Below, piece by piece: positions 3,248-10,850 of a DNA stretch of 64,000 nt (within the stretch, counting starts at the first letter, position 1; every line of letters begins with the position of its first letter). Source of the DNA: Eubacteriales bacterium (GTDB lineage: Bacteria; Bacillota; Clostridia; Oscillospirales; CAG-272); NCBI GenBank assembly GCA_045542075.1, contig JAZQKI010000042.1:19114-83113 (forward strand), in the 5' to 3' direction. The notes under the pieces were generated by a model. It was not told where the DNA came from, did no database searches, and saw nothing but the letters and a program-made list of their open reading frames with translations. The position numbers and the translations under genes are program-made.

Positions 3248-3366
3248 ACTTACCTCACATCTAAAAATTTTCCACTCATTATTATATCATAATTTTTTTC
3301 AATAATAAATCATAAAAACAACGATTATTTACAAATTTCGCATTATTTCATTGTGCAATTTGACAT

Positions 3367-3400
3367 AAAAAAAGCCTTCTTCGTTTTGAAGAAGGCTTTT
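3367..3400 (-). terminator. Intrinsic terminator downstream of trxA
   Basis: Stem gccttcttc/gaagaaggc with a 5-nt loop, followed by a T7 run on the minus strand. Confidence 0.75.
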
Positions 3401-3404
3401 GAAA

Positions 3405-3713
3405 TTATTTGAGCATCTCGAGTATTGCCTCAAGGGGTCTGTAGCCGACTGCCTTATCTGCAAGCTTGCCGTCCTTGAGCAATATAAGTGTGGGTATGCT
3501 GTGAACATCGTAAGCGTTTGCTATAGCGCCCGCCTCGTCAACGTCAACCTTGCATACTACAACGTCATTTCTCGTGTTTGCTATTTCCTCTATATGAGGG
3601 GCGATCATTTTACAAGGACCGCACCAGGTTGCGTAAAAATCAATAAGCACGGGTTTTTCGCTGTTCAAGGCGACCTGCTCAAAATTATCAACTGTTAATT
3701 TTACAATAGCCAT
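3405..3713 (-). CDS. trxA: Thioredoxin
   Basis: 102 aa with a WCGPC active site and typical thioredoxin length and pattern (VLIDFYATWCGPCKMIAP). Confidence 0.9.
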   Translation of the reverse strand: MAIVKLTVDNFEQVALNSEKPVLIDFYATWCGPCKMIAPHIEEIANTRNDVVVCKVDVDEAGAIANAYDVHSIPTLILLKDGKLADKAVGYRPLEAILEMLK

Positions 3714-3724
3714 ATCTGATCTCC

Positions 3725-3922
3725 TTATTTTTGTTTGTAATAAAGCATACAGTGACAGTATCCCTCAAAATCGGGATCCTTTATCTGCTCCTTGAATTCC
3801 TTACATACGCATTTGGTGTCCTCTGTTCTTTCGCGGCGGCAAGGACAGTAACCTCCCGTGCGTTCGAGTCCCTTGCGTATGGTTTCAACTATTTCCTTAT
3901 CGGGATTTTCTATTATTTTCAT
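3725..3922 (-). CDS. Small protein resembling the ferredoxin:thioredoxin reductase catalytic subunit (FTR-B-like)
   Basis: 65 aa with the Cys pattern CPC-x10-CVC-x15-CHC (GYCPCRRERTEDTKCVCKEF...EGYCHCMLY). This is the CPC/CxC/CHC signature of the FTR catalytic chain. It ends 11 nt upstream of the trxA start. Confidence 0.65.
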   Translation of the reverse strand: MKIIENPDKEIVETIRKGLERTGGYCPCRRERTEDTKCVCKEFKEQIKDPDFEGYCHCMLYYKQK

Positions 3923-3945
3923 ATTTTATCCTCTTTGTTCAAGTC

Positions 3946-4878
3946 TTATTTCAAAAATCCGTTTATTATTTCTTCCTCAGCTTCTTTTTCGCTGAGTCCG
4001 AGAGTCATAAGCTTGATAAGCTGCTCTCCCGCAATTTTTCCGATCGCCGCTTCGTGAATAAGCGATGCCTCAATGTTGTTTGCCTCTATCTCGGGAACCG
4101 CTTTTACAGACGCGTTATCCATAATTATAGCGTCACATTCGGTATGTCCGCTGCAGCGGGAGTTACCCTTGATATTGGATATAAAGAGCTGCTTTGACTC
4201 GTCCTTTGCGACTGAACGAGAGACAACGTGTGTGCCGCAGCCATCGCCGTTAAGCTCAACCTCAAATTCGGTGCGCGCGAACTGCTGTCCGTGAGTCATT
4301 ATCTTCTCATAAACGACGAGAGTCGAATCCTTGTCAAGCACAGCGCATGTCCTTCTGTCCGTTGAGTCAACACCCTTAATCTGCGTGGTTTCCATTTCAA
4401 GATACGCGCCCTCCGCAAGATATATCTGCGTTGTGGGATTCATTACGTTTCTGCCGTTTCCGTCGCCCTCGCCGTAATGCTTTTCAACGTACTTTATCTT
4501 GGCGTTTTTGCCAACGTAAAAGGTGTGTATTCCGCTATGCTCACTCATTTCAGTGCCGCAGTTGTGTATTCCGCAGCCCGCAACCACAACTACGTCCGCA
4601 TCCTCGCCAATATAGAAATCGTTATATACTGTCTCGGTTATTCCCGTTTCAGACAGAATTACAGGAATATGCACGCTCTCGTTTTTTGTGCCTGCCTTGA
4701 TATGGATCTCAATTCCGGGCTTGTCCGTCTTTTTCTCGATAACAATGTTATCAGATGAATTTTTACCTACAAGCTCACCGTTTACTCGGAGCGAATATGC
4801 TCCCTCGGGAACCTTATGAAGTCCCGCGATATTTTCAAGGAGGTCTTTTTCCATTTTGCTGAGTGTTTTCTGTGCCAT
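3946..4878 (-). CDS. SufB/SufD-family Fe-S cluster assembly protein
   Basis: 310 aa with beta-helix-like repeats and the C-terminal motif typical of SufBD proteins (EASLIHEAAIGKIAGEQLIKLMTLGLSEKEAEEEIINGFL). Overlaps the sufC stop by 1 nt. Confidence 0.8.
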   Translation of the reverse strand: MAQKTLSKMEKDLLENIAGLHKVPEGAYSLRVNGELVGKNSSDNIVIEKKTDKPGIEIHIKAGTKNESVHIPVILSETGITETVYNDFYIGEDADVVVVAGCGIHNCGTEMSEHSGIHTFYVGKNAKIKYVEKHYGEGDGNGRNVMNPTTQIYLAEGAYLEMETTQIKGVDSTDRRTCAVLDKDSTLVVYEKIMTHGQQFARTEFEVELNGDGCGTHVVSRSVAKDESKQLFISNIKGNSRCSGHTECDAIIMDNASVKAVPEIEANNIEASLIHEAAIGKIAGEQLIKLMTLGLSEKEAEEEIINGFLK

Positions 4879-5609
4879 CAGTTATCACCTCCCGCGGTAT
4901 ATCTGCAGCCTGCGCTGTGACTCAAAAGCTCGGGGAGGATCTCGTCCTTGGTGCCGTACGCCGCGATCTTGCCGCCTGCTATTACGACAACCTTATCCGC
5001 AATATCGAGAATTCTCTCCTGATGCGAGATTATGAGTATATTTCCCTGCGTTCTTTCATGCATTTTTTCGAATACCTTGATGAGATTGTTGAAGCTCCAA
5101 AGGTCGATGCCCGCCTCAGGCTCGTCAAATACGGAGAATTTAGTGCCTCTGGCGTTTATCATAGCGATCTCGATTCTCTTAAGCTCGCCGCCCGACAAGG
5201 ATGCGTTAACCTCACGGTTGATGTATTCCTTGGCGCAAAGTCCCACTTCGGACAGATACGAGCATGCCTCGGAAAAAGATATCTTTTTTCCTGCCGCAAG
5301 CGAAATAAGATCCTTTACTGTGATTCCCTTGAATCTTACGGGCTGCTGAAACGCATAGCTGATACCCGCGCGGGAGCGCTCGGTAATGCTCATATTTGTG
5401 ATGTCCACGCCGTCAAGAAGTATCTGACCGCAATCAGGTGTGATAATTCCCGCAATAAGCTTTGCCAACGTTGATTTTCCGCTTCCGTTAGGACCCGTGA
5501 CTGCAACAAATCTTTCGTTTATAGTTAAGTTTATGTCATCCAAAATACGGTTTTGCTTTCCCGTCGTTGGGTCTGTGACCGTATAAGTCAGATTTTTGAT
5601 TTCAAGCAT
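4878..5609 (-). CDS. sufC: SufC-like Fe-S assembly ABC ATPase
   Basis: 243 aa with Walker A GPNGSGKST, signature LSGGELKR and Walker B FSVFDEPEAGID. No membrane domain. Paired with the SufBD gene. Confidence 0.8.
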   Translation of the reverse strand: MLEIKNLTYTVTDPTTGKQNRILDDINLTINERFVAVTGPNGSGKSTLAKLIAGIITPDCGQILLDGVDITNMSITERSRAGISYAFQQPVRFKGITVKDLISLAAGKKISFSEACSYLSEVGLCAKEYINREVNASLSGGELKRIEIAMINARGTKFSVFDEPEAGIDLWSFNNLIKVFEKMHERTQGNILIISHQERILDIADKVVVIAGGKIAAYGTKDEILPELLSHSAGCRYTAGGDN

Positions 5610-5646
5610 TTATAAATAAGCCTTTCTTAAATTAAGTTCATTCATT

Positions 5647-5675
5647 ATTTTAGCACAAAACTTTGTTTTATTCAA
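5647..5675 (-). promoter_or_regulatory. Putative sigma-A promoter of the sufC-sufBD-FTR-like-trxA operon
   Basis: Minus strand reads TTGAAT-N17-TAAAAT, about 35 nt upstream of the sufC start. Confidence 0.45.
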
Positions 5676-5684
5676 TAGATATTT

Positions 5685-5729
5685 TGAAAAATTAAGGGCA
5701 TAAGAGTAGAAATTACTCTCTTATGCCCC
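5685..5729 (-). terminator. Intrinsic terminator downstream of the trxB homologue
   Basis: 11-bp stem gggcataagag/ctcttatgccc, followed on the minus strand by a T-rich tract (cttaattttt). Confidence 0.55.
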
Positions 5730-5736
5730 ATTTTTA

Positions 5737-6651
5737 TCATATATTACTATTATCAATATATCTGCAAGCGGCGAGAGCGGCAACCGCGCCGTCTCCGCAA
5801 GCCGTCGTGATCTGTCTTATTTCTTTGGTGCGACAGTCTCCTGCAACGAAAAGTCCCTCGGTTGAGGTGAGGCAGTTTTCATCGGATACGATATATCCTC
5901 TGTCTGAAAGCTCAACTAAGTTTGCGTACTGCTCGTTTTCGGGAACCTGGCCTATTGCGACAAAGATACCGTCAACGTCAAGTCTTTCCTTTTCTCCGCT
6001 ATGAACGTTCTTTATGATAATGCCCGCAAATTCATCCTCGGCATAAATGCTGTCAACTACAGCTCCCGTGATAAATTCAACGTTTTCCTTTTTTTCAAGC
6101 GAAGAGACAAGTCTCTCTTCGCCTGTCATAAAGTCAAGATTCTGGACTACGTAAACCTTCTGACATCCGTCTGAAAGCATCATAGCCTCAACGAGCGCAG
6201 AATTTCCTCCTCCTATGACAGCGACCTGCTTGCCGTTATAAAACGCGCCGTCGCAAACCGCGCAAAAGGAGATACCGTTACCGATAAATTCCTCTTCTCT
6301 GTCAATACCGAGGTGTCTGTGCTTGGAGCCGGTGGCAATTATCACGGATTTAGCAAGATACTGACCGTCATCACAGGAAATATAGAAAACTCCGTTGTTC
6401 TTTTCTATGCCCGTAACCTCTGCCATCTCTATTTCCGCTCCCATAGAGAGAGCCTGCTCCACCATTTTTTCGGCAAGCTCGTTTCCGCTTACCTGTGAAA
6501 ACGCGGGGTAATTTTCAATCTTTGGAGAAAATGTCATCTGTCCGCCAAAGGTAGCCTTTTCAATGACGAGTACGCTTTTTTCTGCTCTGCGAGCGTAGAC
6601 CGCCGCGGTAAGTCCCGCGGGGCCTGCGCCTACTATTATTACGTCATACAT
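5737..6651 (-). CDS. trxB: Thioredoxin-reductase-family flavoprotein (TrxB homologue lacking the NADPH HRRxxxR motif)
   Basis: 304 aa with FAD motif VIIVGAGPAGLTAA, redox CAVCDG and second Rossmann motif VAVIGGGNSA. At the position of the HRRxxxR motif it reads VYVVQNLDFMTGEE. Confidence 0.85.
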   Translation of the reverse strand: MYDVIIVGAGPAGLTAAVYARRAEKSVLVIEKATFGGQMTFSPKIENYPAFSQVSGNELAEKMVEQALSMGAEIEMAEVTGIEKNNGVFYISCDDGQYLAKSVIIATGSKHRHLGIDREEEFIGNGISFCAVCDGAFYNGKQVAVIGGGNSALVEAMMLSDGCQKVYVVQNLDFMTGEERLVSSLEKKENVEFITGAVVDSIYAEDEFAGIIIKNVHSGEKERLDVDGIFVAIGQVPENEQYANLVELSDRGYIVSDENCLTSTEGLFVAGDCRTKEIRQITTACGDGAVAALAACRYIDNSNI

Positions 6652-6677
6652 TCTGATACCTACCTGAATCTATTGTA

Positions 6678-9083
6678 TCAATTGCCCGAGCAGTCGATAA
6701 ACTTTCTTATATTGGAAAGGTTTACTGCCTTCTCTGTCTCAACTCCGTCAACTGTGACAACAAGAGTGGGAGCCTGCTTGATGCCAAATTTAGATACAAG
6801 AGCGGCATTGTCCTCCGCATATATCTTTTCATAAGCTATTCCCGCTTTGTCAAGGAACACGGCTGCCATCTTACAGTTAGGACAAGTCTTTGTGGCAAAG
6901 AGGTATATCTTTGTTCCCTCGTTTGTTTCGGGAGCAGCTGCCTCGGGTATGGACATAGCGATAGTTCTTATTCCGCCCGAGCCGATATTTATCTCGGGGT
7001 GAAGCTCTGTGGATCTCTCGATGTTATAGGTGCGTCTCTCCTTGAATTCCTGAGACTTACCGTCATTCCAAGCCTGAACGGGTCTGTAATAGCCTGTTAT
7101 ACGGCTATATACCTCGGTAGTCTTGCCGCAATGAGGACATGAATATACCTCACCTGCGATATATCCGTGGTCGGTACAAACGCTGTACGTGGGCGATAGA
7201 GTATAGTAAGGAAGCTTATAATTCTCCGCGATCTTGCGAACGAGAGTTGCTGCTGCCTTCCAGTCGGGGAGCTTTTCACCGAGGAACGCATGGAATACAG
7301 TACCCGAGGTGTAGAGTGTCTGAAGCTCGTCCTGGATCTCAAGAGCTGCAAAGATATCCTCTGTAAAGCTTACGGGAAGGTGCGAGGAGTTTGTATAATA
7401 GGGGCTGTTGCCCTTTTCGGTTGCGGTGATTATGTCGGGGTACTTCTTAAGGTCGTGCTTAGCAAAACGGAAGGACGTGGACTCAGCGGGAGTAGCCTCG
7501 AGGTTATAGAGGTCGCCGTATGCCTCCTGGTAGTCGGAAAGTCTTTCTCTCATATGGTTGAGGACCTTCTTGGAGAACTCCTGGGTTTCAGTCTGCGTCA
7601 TATCAGCGCGGAGCCATTTTGCGTTAAGACCTACCTCGTTCATACCAACAAGACCGATGGTCGAGAAGTGGTTATTGAACGTGCCGAGGTATCTCTTTGT
7701 ATAGGGATAGAGTCCTTCGTTGAGAAGCTTTGTGATAACGGTTCTCTTCATCTTGAGCGAGCGAGCCGAAATGTCCATAAGCTTGTCGAGTCTCTTGAAG
7801 AATTCCTCCTCTGTCTCGGAGAGATATGCGATTCTGGGCATGTTGATGGTTACAACGCCGACAGAACCTGTGGACTCACCTGAGCCAAAGTATCCGCCCG
7901 ACTTCTTACGAAGCTCACGGAGGTCAAGACGGAGACGGCAGCACATGGAACGAACGTCAGAGGGCTCCATATCCGAGTTGATATAGTTGGAGAAATAAGG
8001 TGTTCCGTACTTTGCTGTCATCTCAAAGAGAAGCTTGTTGTTCTCTGTCTCGGACCAGTCAAAGTCACGTGTGATGGAATACGTGGGGATAGGATACTGG
8101 AAGCCACGGCCGTTAGCGTCGCCCTCGATCATGATCTCGATGAACGCCTTATTGACCATATCCATCTCAGCCTTACAGTCCTTGTACTTGAAGTCCATCT
8201 CCTTGCCGCCAACTATACAGTTGAGCTCTGCGAGGTCGTTAGGAACAGTCCAGTCAAGCGTTATGTTCGTAAAGGGTGACTGAGTTCCCCAACGTGAGGG
8301 TGTGTTTACACCGTAGATAAAGGACTGGATGCACTGCTTTACTTCTTTATATGAAAGATTGTCAACCTTGACAAAAGGAGCAAGGTAAGTATCAAAGGAT
8401 GAGAATGCCTGTGCGCCTGCCCACTCGTTCTGCATGATACCGAGGAAGTTTACCATCTGGTTGCAGAGTGTGGAGAGATGAGCCGCGGGAGAGGATGTGA
8501 TCTTTCCTGTAACACCGCCAAGGCCCTCCTGGATGAGCTGCTTGAGGGACCAACCTGCGCAGTAGCCTGTAAGCATGGAGAGGTCATGGATGTGAATATC
8601 CGCGTTTCTGTGAGCGTTTGCTATCTCGTCGTCGTAGATCTCGGAGAGCCAGTAGTTTGCGGTAACTGCGCCCGAGTTTGAAAGGATAAGTCCGCCTACG
8701 GAGTACGTGACAGTAGAGTTTTCCTTAACTCTCCAGTCAAGAACCTTAAGGTATCCGTTTACTATCTCCTTATAGTCAACTGCCGTGGATTTGAGATTTC
8801 TGAGCTTCTCTCTCTGACGGCGGTAAAGAATATATGCCTTTGCAACGTCAGCGTAGCCTGCCTGAACAAGCACAGACTCAACGCTGTCCTGAATATCTTC
8901 AACTGTGATAAGCGAGTCCTTGATCTTGGGCTCAAAGTCCGCAGTGACCTTGAGAGCCAAAAAATCAATAGTGTCCTGATTGAACTGCTTTTCCTGTGCC
9001 TCAAATGCGCGCTTGATCGCATCCGAAATTTTTGAGATTGTAAAATCTACAATCTTTCCGTCTCTTTTTTGTACCTGATACAT
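6678..9083 (-). CDS. nrdD: Anaerobic (class III) ribonucleoside-triphosphate reductase with a C-terminal glutaredoxin/NrdH-like domain
   Basis: ATP-cone at the N-terminus (MYQVQKRDGKIVDF), Zn ribbon CPHCG and glycyl-radical motif SRITGYYRPV. A ~79-aa CPNC redoxin domain follows (KIYLFATKTCPNCKMAAVFL). Start moved to the Met at 9083, which follows AAAGGAGAG. The 9152 start has no RBS. Confidence 0.9.
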   Translation of the reverse strand: MYQVQKRDGKIVDFTISKISDAIKRAFEAQEKQFNQDTIDFLALKVTADFEPKIKDSLITVEDIQDSVESVLVQAGYADVAKAYILYRRQREKLRNLKSTAVDYKEIVNGYLKVLDWRVKENSTVTYSVGGLILSNSGAVTANYWLSEIYDDEIANAHRNADIHIHDLSMLTGYCAGWSLKQLIQEGLGGVTGKITSSPAAHLSTLCNQMVNFLGIMQNEWAGAQAFSSFDTYLAPFVKVDNLSYKEVKQCIQSFIYGVNTPSRWGTQSPFTNITLDWTVPNDLAELNCIVGGKEMDFKYKDCKAEMDMVNKAFIEIMIEGDANGRGFQYPIPTYSITRDFDWSETENNKLLFEMTAKYGTPYFSNYINSDMEPSDVRSMCCRLRLDLRELRKKSGGYFGSGESTGSVGVVTINMPRIAYLSETEEEFFKRLDKLMDISARSLKMKRTVITKLLNEGLYPYTKRYLGTFNNHFSTIGLVGMNEVGLNAKWLRADMTQTETQEFSKKVLNHMRERLSDYQEAYGDLYNLEATPAESTSFRFAKHDLKKYPDIITATEKGNSPYYTNSSHLPVSFTEDIFAALEIQDELQTLYTSGTVFHAFLGEKLPDWKAAATLVRKIAENYKLPYYTLSPTYSVCTDHGYIAGEVYSCPHCGKTTEVYSRITGYYRPVQAWNDGKSQEFKERRTYNIERSTELHPEINIGSGGIRTIAMSIPEAAAPETNEGTKIYLFATKTCPNCKMAAVFLDKAGIAYEKIYAEDNAALVSKFGIKQAPTLVVTVDGVETEKAVNLSNIRKFIDCSGN

Positions 9084-9208
9084 AGTCTCTCCTTTTTCCG
9101 ATAATGGTTTTATAATGAATTTTTCTTTACAATATAAGACATTTTTCGCCAAAATTTGCCTGAAACGTCAGAAATACGGCGCAAAGTACCCCTAAGCGCC
9201 GTATTTTG

Positions 9209-9237
9209 ATTATACTATATGTTGTGTTCACTGTCAA
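9209..9237 (-). promoter_or_regulatory. Sigma-A promoter of nrdD (consensus TTGACA-N17-TATAAT)
   Basis: The minus strand reads TTGACAgtgaacacaacatatagTATAAT. Confidence 0.65.
9212..9227 (-). promoter_or_regulatory. NrdR box 1 (overlaps the -10 and spacer of the nrdD promoter)
   Basis: atactatatgttgtgt matches the A/T-rich NrdR palindrome type (acaCwAtATaTwGtgt). Confidence 0.6.
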
Positions 9238-9244
9238 CTACCAA

Positions 9245-9260
9245 ACACAAGATATTGTGT
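9245..9260 (-). promoter_or_regulatory. NrdR box 2 (just upstream of the -35)
   Basis: acacaagatattgtgt is a near-perfect 16-bp palindrome, starting 33 bp from box 1. Confidence 0.65.
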
Positions 9261-9291
9261 TTTTCGTTAAAATTTGGCAGATTTAATAATT

Positions 9292-9996
9292 TTACATACC
9301 CCTTAATTGTGCATTTGGAACGAAAGACTTTAATGTGTTAAGAAATTCATGCATTTTTTCGTCTGAATAAGCTTCAAGACCCCTACCGATTACATCACCC
9401 GAATCAATAAACTTCTGAAGAAAGAACCTCTCATCCCCACTAAGCCACTCACCTATATGTTGGAAATCGTCTGTGTCGTGAAGCGGGTCAACAACTGTCG
9501 TGCGGAATTCAAAATCCACCGCTCCTGACATAAGATAGCTTGCGCTTTCTTCTATTTTTGATATATCGAAATTCTCGTCCAGTCCCGAGGTAAGAGCATA
9601 TTTCTCGCGGCTGTTTTTTATATCCATGGCAACGTAGTCGATAAGTCCCTCATTCACAAGATGCCTGAGTATTTCGGGGCGAGTACCGTTTGTATCAAGC
9701 TTTACAGCAAATCCGAGGTCTTTGACACTGCGTATAAATTCTTCAAGTCCCGGCATCAGTGTGGGTTCGCCTCCGCTGATACAAACACCTTCAATTATTC
9801 CCTGTCGCTTTTTCAAAAAATCAAGTATGTATTCCACAGAATATCCCTCGGTCTCGCCCGTATGGGTAACCAAGGACGCGTTATGACAGAATGGGCAACG
9901 GAAATTGCAGCCCTCTGTAAACACCGTGCAGGCAACCTTGCCGGGAAAATCAAGCAGAGTAAGCTTTTGCAGTCCCGCAATCTTAAATACTTTCAT
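9292..9996 (-). CDS. nrdG: Anaerobic RNR activating protein (radical SAM)
   Basis: CNFRCPFCHN radical-SAM cluster and GGEPT motif. Start moved to MKVFKIAGLQ at 9996, because the longer ORF would overlap lexA. Confidence 0.9.
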   Translation of the reverse strand: MKVFKIAGLQKLTLLDFPGKVACTVFTEGCNFRCPFCHNASLVTHTGETEGYSVEYILDFLKKRQGIIEGVCISGGEPTLMPGLEEFIRSVKDLGFAVKLDTNGTRPEILRHLVNEGLIDYVAMDIKNSREKYALTSGLDENFDISKIEESASYLMSGAVDFEFRTTVVDPLHDTDDFQHIGEWLSGDERFFLQKFIDSGDVIGRGLEAYSDEKMHEFLNTLKSFVPNAQLRGM

Positions 9997-10009
9997 AAAT
10001 TTATCCTTA

Positions 10010-10603
10010 TTATACGTAGTTTCTCTGTATGGCAACGACTCTGCCGAGTATAAGCACCTCGTCAACTATTATAGGCTGCATCATGTGATTTTCGGGCTGA
10101 AGTCTGTAATGTCCGTTTTCACGGAAAAATCTTTTAACAGTAGCCTCATTTTCTATAAGCGCAACGACTATTTCTCCACTCTCGGCATAGCAGGTGCTTT
10201 CGGCAATAATAATGTCTCCGTCAAGTATTCCCGCCTCTATCATGGACTCACCCTTTACGCGCAGCGCAAATAGGCTGTCTGCGGCGGAATTTCCCGCATA
10301 TCCTACGTAGCCCTCGCGGTTTTCCTCGGCAAGTATAGGCTCGCCCGCGGTAATTACACCCAAGAGCGGCACTGCGGTTATTTTGGGGGTATCTCCTACC
10401 AGCTTTAACGCGCGGCTCTTTCCGTCATCCTTGCTTATATATCCAAGCAGATCAAGACGGTTGAGGTACATATGCACTGTAGATGTGCTCTTATATCCAA
10501 GGTCGCGGCATATATCACGCACGGAGGGCGCATAGCCGTTCTCCCGCATGGATTTCGCTATATAGTCGTATATTTTTTGTTCTTTTGGCTTTAATTTTTC
10601 CAT
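10010..10603 (-). CDS. lexA: LexA SOS repressor
   Basis: 197 aa with an N-terminal wHTH (PSVRDICRDLGYKSTSTVHMYLNRL) and a C-terminal S24 peptidase (VKGESMIEAGILDGD...). Confidence 0.92.
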   Translation of the reverse strand: MEKLKPKEQKIYDYIAKSMRENGYAPSVRDICRDLGYKSTSTVHMYLNRLDLLGYISKDDGKSRALKLVGDTPKITAVPLLGVITAGEPILAEENREGYVGYAGNSAADSLFALRVKGESMIEAGILDGDIIIAESTCYAESGEIVVALIENEATVKRFFRENGHYRLQPENHMMQPIIVDEVLILGRVVAIQRNYV

Positions 10604-10630
10604 TGATGCGCTCCTGTTTCAGTCATTATA

Positions 10631-10664
10631 GAACTATTGTACCATATTTTTTTCACTTTGTCTA
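10631..10664 (-). promoter_or_regulatory. lexA promoter (TAGACA-N17-TACAAT) with an overlapping LexA (Cheo-type) box
   Basis: gaactattgtac (10631-10642) is GAAC-N4-GTAC, one mismatch from GAAC-N4-GTTC. It overlaps the -10 hexamer. Confidence 0.5.
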
Positions 10665-10747
10665 TATATATTGAAAATTTATTTGATGCTATCGGGTTTG
10701 AAGAAATATTGAAAATATTAACAAAATGAAACTTTTAGAATTTTCTC

Positions 10748-10776
10748 TTGCAAAAAATCAAAAAATATAGTAGAAT
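10748..10776 (+). promoter_or_regulatory. Putative promoter of the PEPCK gene
   Basis: TTGCAA-N17-TAGAAT, about 75 nt upstream of the start codon. RBS AAAGGAGAAAAAG. Confidence 0.45.
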
Positions 10777-10850
10777 ATATAATAGCGGAGAATTTATATT
10801 TTCGCTTATAAAAGTTAAAAAAATCCAAAAATATAAAGGAGAAAAAGACT

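Follow-up and report, generated by a model that had tools for sequence, protein, structure and literature searches.

The window, a stretch of 64,000 nucleotides from a gut bacterium, encodes a class III ribonucleotide reductase (RNR), NrdD, that ends in a small CxxC redoxin domain and is followed by a flavoprotein of the thioredoxin reductase (TrxR) family. It is probable that this is a thiol-dependent reductase of the NrdD2 type that carries its own disulfide reductant, recharged by the adjacent flavoprotein. A preliminary description had proposed a thiol-dependent NrdD with its own reductant module, and the beta-A Cys, MCCR finger loop and Glu, when aligned to the NrdD of T. maritima, support that proposal.

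Domain architecture of the fused NrdD

The nrdD::redoxin gene lies on the minus strand at 6678..9083 and encodes 801 amino acids, as established from the open frame, Pfam and NCBIfam matches, and alignments. The frame is open over 6678-9152 of the minus strand; the probable start is the ATG at 9083, which has AAGGAGAG 5 nt upstream and is the Met at which homologues also start, and the stop is at 6678-6680. An ATP-cone (residues 3-92; 8808..9077, minus strand; PF03477, 82 bits) precedes the class III core and glycyl-radical domain (residues 121-686; 7026..8723, minus strand; PF13597, the Pfam NRDD family, 636 bits). The protein passes the curated cut-offs of two class III ribonucleotide reductase family models, NF006126 (residues 1-688 against a 684-position model, 1140 bits with a cut-off of 548) and TIGR02487 (523 bits with a cut-off of 326). 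It is the sole RNR found in the genome.

Core residues were located by alignment to 4coi and 8p23. The glycyl-radical motif SRITGYYRPV spans residues 660-669, with the radical site at G664 (nt 7092-7094), and the Zn site of this domain (C636/H639/C649/C652) aligns to those of T. maritima and Prevotella NrdD. C175, MCCR, E529, the Zn-site residues, and G664 show no variation across 60 homologues.

The core is joined to the redoxin by a linker (residues 687-722; 6918..7025, minus strand) that has no Cys in the window's protein and differs among homologues in both length and sequence. Some homologues have a CxC or CC pair in this linker, a candidate shuttle comparable to the C-terminal tails of class I and II enzymes. 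A length of about 35 residues had been suggested, and the distance from the end of the NrdD model (~688) to the first redoxin strand (723) is indeed about 35-36. The full-length AlphaFold model is poor overall (pLDDT 56.7) and falls below 50 over residues 666-722, so that the linker is predicted to be disordered and flexible. The redoxin was likewise found where it had been described, with residue 723 beginning at nt 6917 and CPNC at residues 734-737. That the fusion is no accident of assembly follows from the invariance of CPNC and of the cis-Pro loop APTL (residues 771-774) in 60/60 full-length homologues, and from the 882 clusters (90% identity) that match the C-terminal region inside proteins of NrdD length.

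Active site and reductant class

Subtypes of NrdD have been defined by their active-site residues (PMC4493059; PMC9669993), with Glu and a third Cys defining the thiol type (PMC4493059). The finger loop of the window's NrdD, MCCR (residues 380-383; nt 7935-7946), aligns with SCCR 328-331 of T. maritima NrdD; likewise, Y174-C175 of beta-A aligns with Y124-C125, and E529, within NLEATPAE, with E495. The formate-type Prevotella NrdD differs, with an MGCR finger loop and a Leu at the position equivalent to E529 in the alignment. All the residues that mark NrdD2 (the third Cys of a double-Cys finger loop, the beta-A Cys, and the active-site Glu) are thus present; those that mark NrdD1 (a single-Cys MGCR, no third Cys, no Glu) are replaced by MCCR and E529, and the Met alone is common. 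MCCR, NLEATPAE, YC, and CPNC each occur in 60/60 fused homologues. The residues therefore support assignment to the thiol (NrdD2) type and are not those of a formate-dependent enzyme.

Formate use is nevertheless conceivable, since the finger loop keeps the Met (Met380) and a homologue of pyruvate formate-lyase is present in the genome (TIGR01255; 919 bits, on a partial cut). The thiosulfuranyl radical of the formate mechanism forms on the finger-loop Met (PMC9669993), and Burnim et al. found that 83% of double-Cys NrdDs keep it, apparently equipped for either reductant (PMC9669993). The enzyme could then be formate-dependent or dual, with the redoxin as an auxiliary that either undoes a disulfide formed adventitiously by C175 and the extra Cys or comes to the rescue when formate is scarce. 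We consider this unlikely. Glu and the third Cys mark the thiol type (PMC4493059); T. maritima NrdD had no activity with formate and required a protein fraction of >10 kDa (PMC4493059); and in the N. bacilliformis enzyme, as relayed in PMC9669993, a finger-loop Cys and the beta-A Cys form a disulfide that thioredoxin reduces. The invariant CPNC and the co-inherited reductase also argue for a role of the redoxin in every turnover.

The redoxin domain

The redoxin (residues 723-801; 6681..6917, minus strand) has a thioredoxin fold, as seen from Pfam matches, its structural model, and related PDB folds. CPNC is encoded at nt 6873-6884. In the full-length product a Glutaredoxin/Thioredoxin match covers residues 725-791; the domain alone matches both PF00462 (28.5 bits, cut-off 22.9) and PF00085 (26.5 bits, cut-off 23.5). 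GSH-dependent glutaredoxins have a CPYC-type site and GSH-binding residues. All NCBIfam Grx models score well under their cut-offs, and TIGR02194, the NrdH-redoxin model, gives 21.8 bits where its cut-off is 85.75. NrdH-redoxins carry the motifs C(V/M)QC and WSGFRP; the redoxin domain has no WSGFRP, and its CxxC motif is CPNC. The model of the isolated domain (pLDDT 90.8) shows the order strand-helix-strand-helix-strand-strand-helix, and its closest PDB folds are thioredoxins. Of the earlier designation as a glutaredoxin/NrdH-like domain, the redoxin part stands. The domain is assignable to neither Grx nor NrdH in particular, and the most fitting name for it is a minimal CxxC redoxin with a thioredoxin fold. 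The genome has no Grx-family domain other than that of the fusion.

Distribution of the fusion

Two samples were surveyed, 201 genomes from the order to which the organism belongs and 300 from the class. Every NrdD of at least 73% identity in the order sample carries the C-terminal domain, which is therefore present in the close orthologues, and it is absent only from a separate clade at ~50% identity. In the class sample the fusion was found in at least 53 of 107 NrdD-bearing genomes. Among the matches listed, 59 of 78 fused genes are followed within 450 nt by a trxB gene of the same orientation and 16 have no listed trxB on their contig; this linkage extends to other orders. On these comparisons, the redoxin-fused design is common in gut Clostridia.

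Most candidates for separated forms did not hold up. Apparent splits between nrdD and redoxin, flagged as containing one TAA, were terminal stops read through; a 122-aa frame in one genome (G469) was a fragment at a contig end; and short redoxin matches that might have been stand-alone forms were mostly partial NrdDs on short contigs. A census at 50% identity gave 631 representatives at E 1e-10 or better, the entries listed being mostly proteins of 75-390 aa in which the domain comes last. When six were scanned, two (P0269, P0344) were NrdD fragments and four (P0198, P0199, P0201, P0228) had no NrdD match; this census mixes in NrdD fragments and is unusable as a count of stand-alone redoxins.

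The linked thioredoxin reductase-like flavoprotein

The trxB-like gene (5737..6651, minus strand) encodes a low-Mr flavoprotein of 304 aa, identified through TIGR01292, PDB alignments, and comparison with paralogues. Its ATG at 6651 leaves a gap of 26 nt to the nrdD stop, as previously described. The TIGR01292 score, 334.7 bits, is slightly below the cut-off of 343.45. The protein has the motifs GAGPAG, CAVC, and GGGNSA, but where NADPH-type TrxB carries HRRxxxR, for the 2'-phosphate of NADPH, it reads QNLDFMTGE. The position and family given for this gene are thus borne out, but it is not a canonical NADPH-type enzyme.

Most NrdD-linked TrxRs, including that of the window, have QNLDF(L/M)TGE instead of HRRxxxR, with HRR kept in three linked exceptions. 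A branch with support 100/98 sets the NrdD-linked TrxRs apart in the tree, and the QNL-type TrxRs form a single group (100/96); the linked TrxRs are a clade of their own by sequence. In genomes with two TrxRs, the unlinked paralogue keeps HRRxxFR. The best PDB match, 7jyp, also has a QNL-type motif (VQNLPYLT). The protein is much nearer to NADPH-type, NTR-like chains (E 1e-66 to 1e-71) than to the FFTR chains 6gna, 6gnc, and 6gnd (E 1e-36 to 1e-37), and GGGNSA is kept, features that set it apart from FFTR. Low-Mr TrxRs without HRRxxxR include those of T. maritima and D. vulgaris TR3 (NADH), clostridial FFTR (ferredoxin), and DvTRi (PMC5627308; PMC10880999). These share the fold, FAD site, and CxxC of the window's protein, and in both the Arg triad for the 2'-phosphate has been lost; they differ in that the window's protein keeps GGGNSA and that its replacement motif is itself conserved. 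No description of a nrdD linkage of QNL-type TrxRs was found in the papers searched. Because the three Arg residues for the 2'-phosphate are lost and the pyrophosphate motif GGGNSA is kept, NADH is the most likely electron donor, with ferredoxin or flavodoxin less likely. That the QNL-type NrdD-linked flavoprotein takes its electrons from ferredoxin or flavodoxin and none from NAD(P)H is a reading with something in its favor, but we regard it as doubtful.

Complex prediction weakly supports a pairing of the TrxB-like protein with the redoxin. The ipSAE was 0.43 (best control, 0.01), the runs agreed in at least 93% of contacts, and partner pLDDT was at least 84. Of 80 solved complexes, 58 pass the mark applied, as do 2 of 110 mismatched pairs; only 7 of the 80 solved complexes, but both passing mismatches, have an ipSAE of 0.60 or below. 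The pass may reflect likeness to known structures, since TrxR-Trx complexes have already been solved.

Transcription of the nrdD-trxB module

Upstream of nrdD is a promoter-like site, TTGACA-17-TATAAT (9209..9237, minus strand), which matches the consensus at 12/12 positions and is the top site of the scanned region. Two NrdR-box-like 16-bp palindromes accompany it, an upstream box matching the pattern exactly (9245..9260, no strand assigned) and a second over the -10 and spacer with one mismatch (9212..9227, no strand assigned). The pattern matches nowhere else in the 64 kb; the two boxes lie 33 bp apart, and the genome has an NrdR gene. Directly after the -10 is a stable hairpin (9165..9208, minus strand; -20.2 kcal/mol, z -5.3) that may be a 5'-UTR element or the terminator of lexA-nrdG; an Rfam search of 3300-10800, which included it, gave no match. 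The activase gene nrdG (9292..9996, minus strand) encodes a radical SAM protein (TIGR02495 NrdG2, 218.5 bits, cut-off 131). Its ATG is 13 nt past the lexA stop, and its position upstream of nrdD is kept in 10 of 11 related loci.

The preliminary description placed no terminator before the end of trxB, and a scan of the minus strand from 9083 to 5737 agrees, giving no terminator-like site. Just past the trxB stop is an intrinsic terminator, a strong hairpin (5686..5729, minus strand; -22.8 kcal/mol, z -5.9) followed by the U-rich tail UUAAUUUUUC. We propose that nrdD and trxB form one predicted transcript under the control of NrdR.

This arrangement bears on the possibility that the redoxin serves not as the catalytic electron donor but to sense redox state or protect the enzyme, for instance by keeping Zn-site or finger-loop thiols reduced after exposure to oxygen, with the adjacency of trxB a matter of general thiol housekeeping. 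Oxygen sensitivity is a property of class III RNRs, and the genome has no TrxR besides the linked one, which must serve TrxA too; the reductase is hence not exclusive to NrdD in this organism, a canonical trxA lying 2 kb away. Such a role is nonetheless highly improbable, in view of the separate paralogue that remains with nrdD where two TrxRs exist, the NrdR boxes ahead of the operon, as for dNTP-supply genes, and the need of an NrdD2 active site for a disulfide reductant in any case.

Adjoining trxA, at 3725-3922, is a 65-aa ORF resembling the catalytic subunit of FTR (PF02943, 26.3 bits, cut-off 22), and its homologues lie directly 3' of unfused or divergent NrdDs in two genomes (G164 and G101). 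It is scarcely probable at all that this protein, with ferredoxin, or some other reductase is what mainly recharges the redoxin, in the style of Methanosarcina FDR/NrdH, since FTR-like proteins were found in only 55 of the 201 order genomes and, in most genomes, not on the nrdD contig, and the linkage to trxB is far stronger. A conserved link of the nrdD module to the suf/FTRc-like/trxA cluster was also considered and rejected, that cluster not being 3' of trxB in six same-family relatives.

A proposed electron route

From these features we infer a route for the thiol-dependent enzyme. NrdG and SAM would generate the glycyl radical on G664, and catalysis would begin with a thiyl radical on either C381 or C382 of the finger loop. 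The two electrons would come from the remaining finger-loop Cys and C175 of beta-A, with E529 as the proton source and a disulfide as product. The CPNC domain, tethered by its disordered linker of about 36 residues, could swing in to reduce this disulfide. Oxidised CPNC would be recharged in turn by the CAVC/FAD flavoprotein, whose gene follows nrdD after 26 nt in one putatively NrdR-controlled transcript.

Comparison with known systems

The closest counterparts are the NrdD2 enzymes of N. bacilliformis, with TrxA/TrxB/NADPH, and of T. maritima, which have the same beta-A Cys, double-Cys finger loop, and Glu (Wei et al. 2014, as relayed in PMC9669993, PMC4493059, and PMC9176816). As described in those sources, they likewise have a glycyl-radical domain with a Zn site and an NrdG activase, and their reductant is a protein dithiol. 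Unlike them, the window's enzyme carries its redoxin on its own chain, and its operon includes a dedicated TrxR paralogue; its finger loop is MCCR instead of SCCR, and its reductase is without the motif for the 2'-phosphate of NADPH.

The NrdD3 of Methanosarcina barkeri is likewise encoded together with a small redoxin of Grx size and a reductase of its own (Wei et al. 2015, as cited in PMC9176816). From that account its chain is self-contained and independent of NADPH, as proposed for the module described here, but it is without the Glu, its redoxin is separate, and its reductase is of the Fe-S FTR type, whereas that of the window is a flavoprotein. A redoxin is fused to an RNR subunit in the class I Grx::ATP-cone::NrdB of Facklamia ignava as well, and experiments showed that the fused Grx reduces the RNR (PMC6187632). 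In that case, however, the fusion is N-terminal, to the radical subunit, the domain is a true GSH-dependent Grx, and a Cys pair at the C-terminus of NrdA acts as shuttle (PMC6187632). The same study listed one grx::nrdD fusion in RefSeq, from Lachnospiraceae bacterium TWA4 (PMC6187632), and this passing mention was the single such fusion found in our literature search.

Implications

To our knowledge, just a handful of class III enzymes have been tested for their reductant, be it formate or protein thiols. Most double-Cys enzymes keep the formate-type Met, which makes their reductant ambiguous (Burnim et al., PMC9669993). The combination of an MCCR NrdD-redoxin fusion with a dedicated TrxR lineage, in many families of Clostridia, is strong comparative evidence that this large group runs on thiols. 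The module would be a variant of thiol-dependent class III RNR. The fusion also offers a handy single-polypeptide system for the question of reductant. If the proposed reading is correct, Rosetta-stone logic would suggest that the MCCR class III group, to which 83% of double-Cys enzymes belong, is thiol-dependent.

For the organism, the sole source of dNTPs found in the genome is a class III RNR, and the exchange of the NADPH pocket for another conserved motif may tie anaerobic supply of DNA precursors to a different electron pool. Should the donor prove to be ferredoxin or flavodoxin, gut Clostridia would possess, hard-wired by fusion, a flavin-based bacterial equivalent of the chain that in methanogens runs from ferredoxin through disulfide reductase and redoxin to NrdD.

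Architecture and active site of the NrdD-redoxin fusion

The 801-residue class III ribonucleotide reductase (RNR) NrdD encoded at 6678-9083 (minus strand) has an ATP-cone match at residues 3-92 and a Pfam NRDD match at residues 121-686, and residues 1-688 match NCBIfam NF006126 end to end. The protein runs on for 113 residues past that match, and Glutaredoxin and Thioredoxin models match residues 725-791, with CPNC inside. The fused CPNC redoxin of the preliminary description is confirmed, and its coordinates, linker of about 35 residues and 26-nt gap to the trxB homologue were all correct.

Active-site residues were placed by HMMER alignments to solved NrdDs. Y174-C175 lies opposite Y124-C125 of T. 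maritima NrdD, MCCR (380-383) aligns to SCCR (328-331), and E529, within NLEATPAE, aligns to E495, whereas the formate-type Prevotella NrdD (8p23) has MGCR at the finger loop and Leu at the Glu position. The third Cys and the Glu define the thiol-dependent subtype NrdD2, some members of which also keep the Met (PMC4493059), and by this definition the site is of the NrdD2 type with Met retained. The comparison of these residues, which had been proposed as a check, supports the earlier suggestion that this is probably a thiol-dependent enzyme. According to PMC9669993, a finger-loop Cys and the beta-A Cys of N. bacilliformis NrdD form a disulfide that thioredoxin reduces. That the enzyme uses formate as well as thiols is a live alternative: the Met is kept in 83% of double-Cys NrdDs, which look competent for either reductant (PMC9669993), and formate is probably available in the source organism, which encodes a pyruvate formate-lyase homologue. 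Formate did not drive T. maritima NrdD, for which a protein fraction of >10 kDa was needed (PMC4493059).

Reductant supply in the source genome

A search of the source assembly (1.64 Mb, completeness 96.65%) for the barrel domain of class I or II RNRs gave no match, so the NrdD-redoxin fusion is the only RNR found there; it is also the only Grx-family match, and the nrdD-linked flavoprotein is the single thioredoxin-reductase (TrxR) homologue. Since the genome has one TrxR and a canonical trxA (3405-3713, minus strand), the reductase must also serve TrxA. Besides NrdD, two glycyl-radical enzymes are encoded outside the window (G000:C48:29795-31555 and G000:C16:37616-39694), the pyruvate formate-lyase homologue and a member of the PFL2/glycerol-dehydratase group. 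In this genome, then, a likely formate source exists alongside a thiol-type NrdD.

Adjoining trxA is a 65-residue ORF (3725-3922, minus strand) with CPC..CxC..CHC and a match to PF02943, the catalytic chain of ferredoxin:thioredoxin reductase (26.3 bits; cut-off 22). Of 201 genomes in the order, 55 have homologues, and in two genomes (G164 and G101) these lie directly 3' of unfused or divergent NrdD genes; in six relatives from the window's family they do not adjoin the nrdD-trxB module.

The redoxin domain and its linker

The model of the redoxin domain, folded from a 12-sequence alignment (pLDDT 90.8), runs strand-helix-strand-helix-strand-strand-helix, without the N-terminal strand and helix present in full thioredoxins, and thioredoxins head its PDB matches (TM 0.72-0.77 over the query). 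Taken alone, the domain exceeds the cut-off of PF00462 (28.5 bits) and that of PF00085 (26.5 bits), and every NCBIfam equivalog for Grx, NrdH or Trx scores far under its own. This makes it a minimal CxxC redoxin of the thioredoxin fold, assignable neither to NrdH nor to GSH-dependent Grx. In the full-length NrdD model, otherwise poor, pLDDT is 77-87 at residues 723-800 and below 50 at residues 666-722, a predicted profile that fits a flexible tether.

A Cys pair is present in the linker of 35 of 60 fused homologues (alignment columns for window residues 687-727, nt 6903-7025), in most cases CxC or CC among acidic residues (EECACE, for example); no such pair occurs in the window's protein or in 18 further homologues. 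These pairs recall the shuttle cysteines at the C-termini of RNRs of class I and class II, and may form an optional relay from redoxin to active site, or a metal site.

Organization of the locus

The TrxB homologue (304 residues; 5737-6651, minus strand) follows nrdD with no terminator-like site on that strand from nrdD start to trxB stop, as first described, and a hairpin with a U-rich tail (-22.8 kcal/mol) lies 3' of trxB. A sigma-70-like promoter with 12 of 12 consensus matches precedes nrdD, flanked or overlapped by two palindromes resembling the NrdR-box consensus, the only two in the 64 kb; an NrdR gene is encoded in the source genome. Directly past the -10 of this promoter is a stable hairpin (9165-9208, minus strand; -20.2 kcal/mol, z -5.3) that has no match in Rfam and could be a 5'-UTR element or a lexA-nrdG terminator. 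Within the lexA-nrdG pair (9292-10603, minus strand; lexA 10010-10603, nrdG 9292-9996), 13 nt separate the lexA stop from the nrdG ATG, and nrdD's own promoter lies between nrdG and nrdD, so the activase may be transcribed with lexA rather than with nrdD.

Spread of the fusion

The C-terminal region was matched in 882 clusters (90% identity) of NrdD-length proteins, and CPNC, the APTL cis-Pro loop, MCCR, YC and NLEATPAE are invariant across the 60 aligned homologues. The survey that had been advised found this NrdD in 93 of 201 genomes of the same order, 78 of the 82 tabulated matches at ≥73% identity extending to residue 770 or further. Three seemed to end at residue 689, and the one inspected (genome G006) has the CPNC domain on a shorter linker; the remaining match (genome G133) reaches residue 741 in an 817-residue open frame. 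In a class sample of 300 genomes, the glycyl-radical end was matched in 107 and the redoxin in the same frame in at least 53, from many families. A separate clade of about 50% identity is unfused yet has the same MCCR/YC/Glu site, so the thiol-type site predates the fusion.

Comparison across families and even orders (loci L011-L021 and L047-L051) gives 83-89% identity for the NrdD core, just 48-62% for the adjacent TrxR and 46-64% for the redoxin, which suggests that the core is very strongly constrained or that the module has spread laterally. Two database proteins may represent assembly chimeras or additional variants of the fusion: P0201 (255 residues), in which the initial 180 residues of a TrxR-like protein run straight into the redoxin domain, and P0198 (309 residues), with two redoxin matches.

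The linked thioredoxin-reductase homologue

Of the 78 fused genes, 59 have a same-strand TrxB homologue no more than 450 nt downstream and 3 more have one inside 1.5 kb, and the arrangement recurs at loci of other orders. The window's protein retains the FAD motif, CAVC and GGGNSA, and carries QNLDFMTG at the position of HRRDxLRA in the TrxRs of L. lactis and S. aureus; a motif of this kind also occurs in 7jyp, its best match in the PDB. In nine two-TrxR genomes the linked copy has QNL(D/P)F(L/F)TGE, or QDMDYFTGE (genome G174), and the unlinked copy H/Y/N-RR..(F/L)R. In a maximum-likelihood tree one branch (support 100/98) has every linked TrxR to the same side, and those of the QNL type group together (100/96). 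Three linked TrxRs, one from the window's own family, keep HRR, so in this midpoint-rooted tree nrdD linkage appears older than the change of pocket. TrxRs without HRR include NADH-, ferredoxin-, F420-dependent and unknown-donor enzymes, and pyrophosphate sites are degraded in the ferredoxin- and F420-dependent ones (PMC5627308). Because GGGNSA is invariant here, we infer NADH as the favoured donor.

Complex prediction weakly suggests that the flavoprotein pairs with the redoxin domain (score 0.43, best control 0.01; partner pLDDT ≥84; runs agreeing in ≥93% of contacts). In the benchmark, scores ≤0.60 occurred in only 7 of 80 solved complexes and in both mismatched pairs that passed, and, as similar complexes have already been solved, the pass may reflect likeness.

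Proposed mechanism and relation to known systems

In the proposed electron-transfer cycle, with steps taken from the published NrdD2 scheme and a parts list and its conservation from this analysis, the glycyl radical would generate a thiyl radical at one of the two finger-loop Cys; C175 and the second of these Cys, with E529, would reduce the substrate and form a disulfide; the tethered CPNC domain would reduce that disulfide; and the CAVC/FAD flavoprotein would recharge the CPNC domain with electrons from NADH or some other donor. Among known systems the nearest is NrdD2, which pairs with free thioredoxin and NADPH-TrxR, and the nearest self-contained chain, according to the table in PMC9176816, is Methanosarcina NrdD3 with an NrdH-like redoxin and FDR. 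For a fused reductant the nearest precedent is Facklamia's class I Grx::NrdB, reported in a study that also names one grx::nrdD fusion in RefSeq but takes it no further (PMC6187632). No paper found describes how widely the fusion occurs, how it is tied to MCCR-type sites, or a dedicated HRR-less TrxR lineage. The NrdD-redoxin fusion is an uncharacterised yet widespread variant of a known enzyme type.
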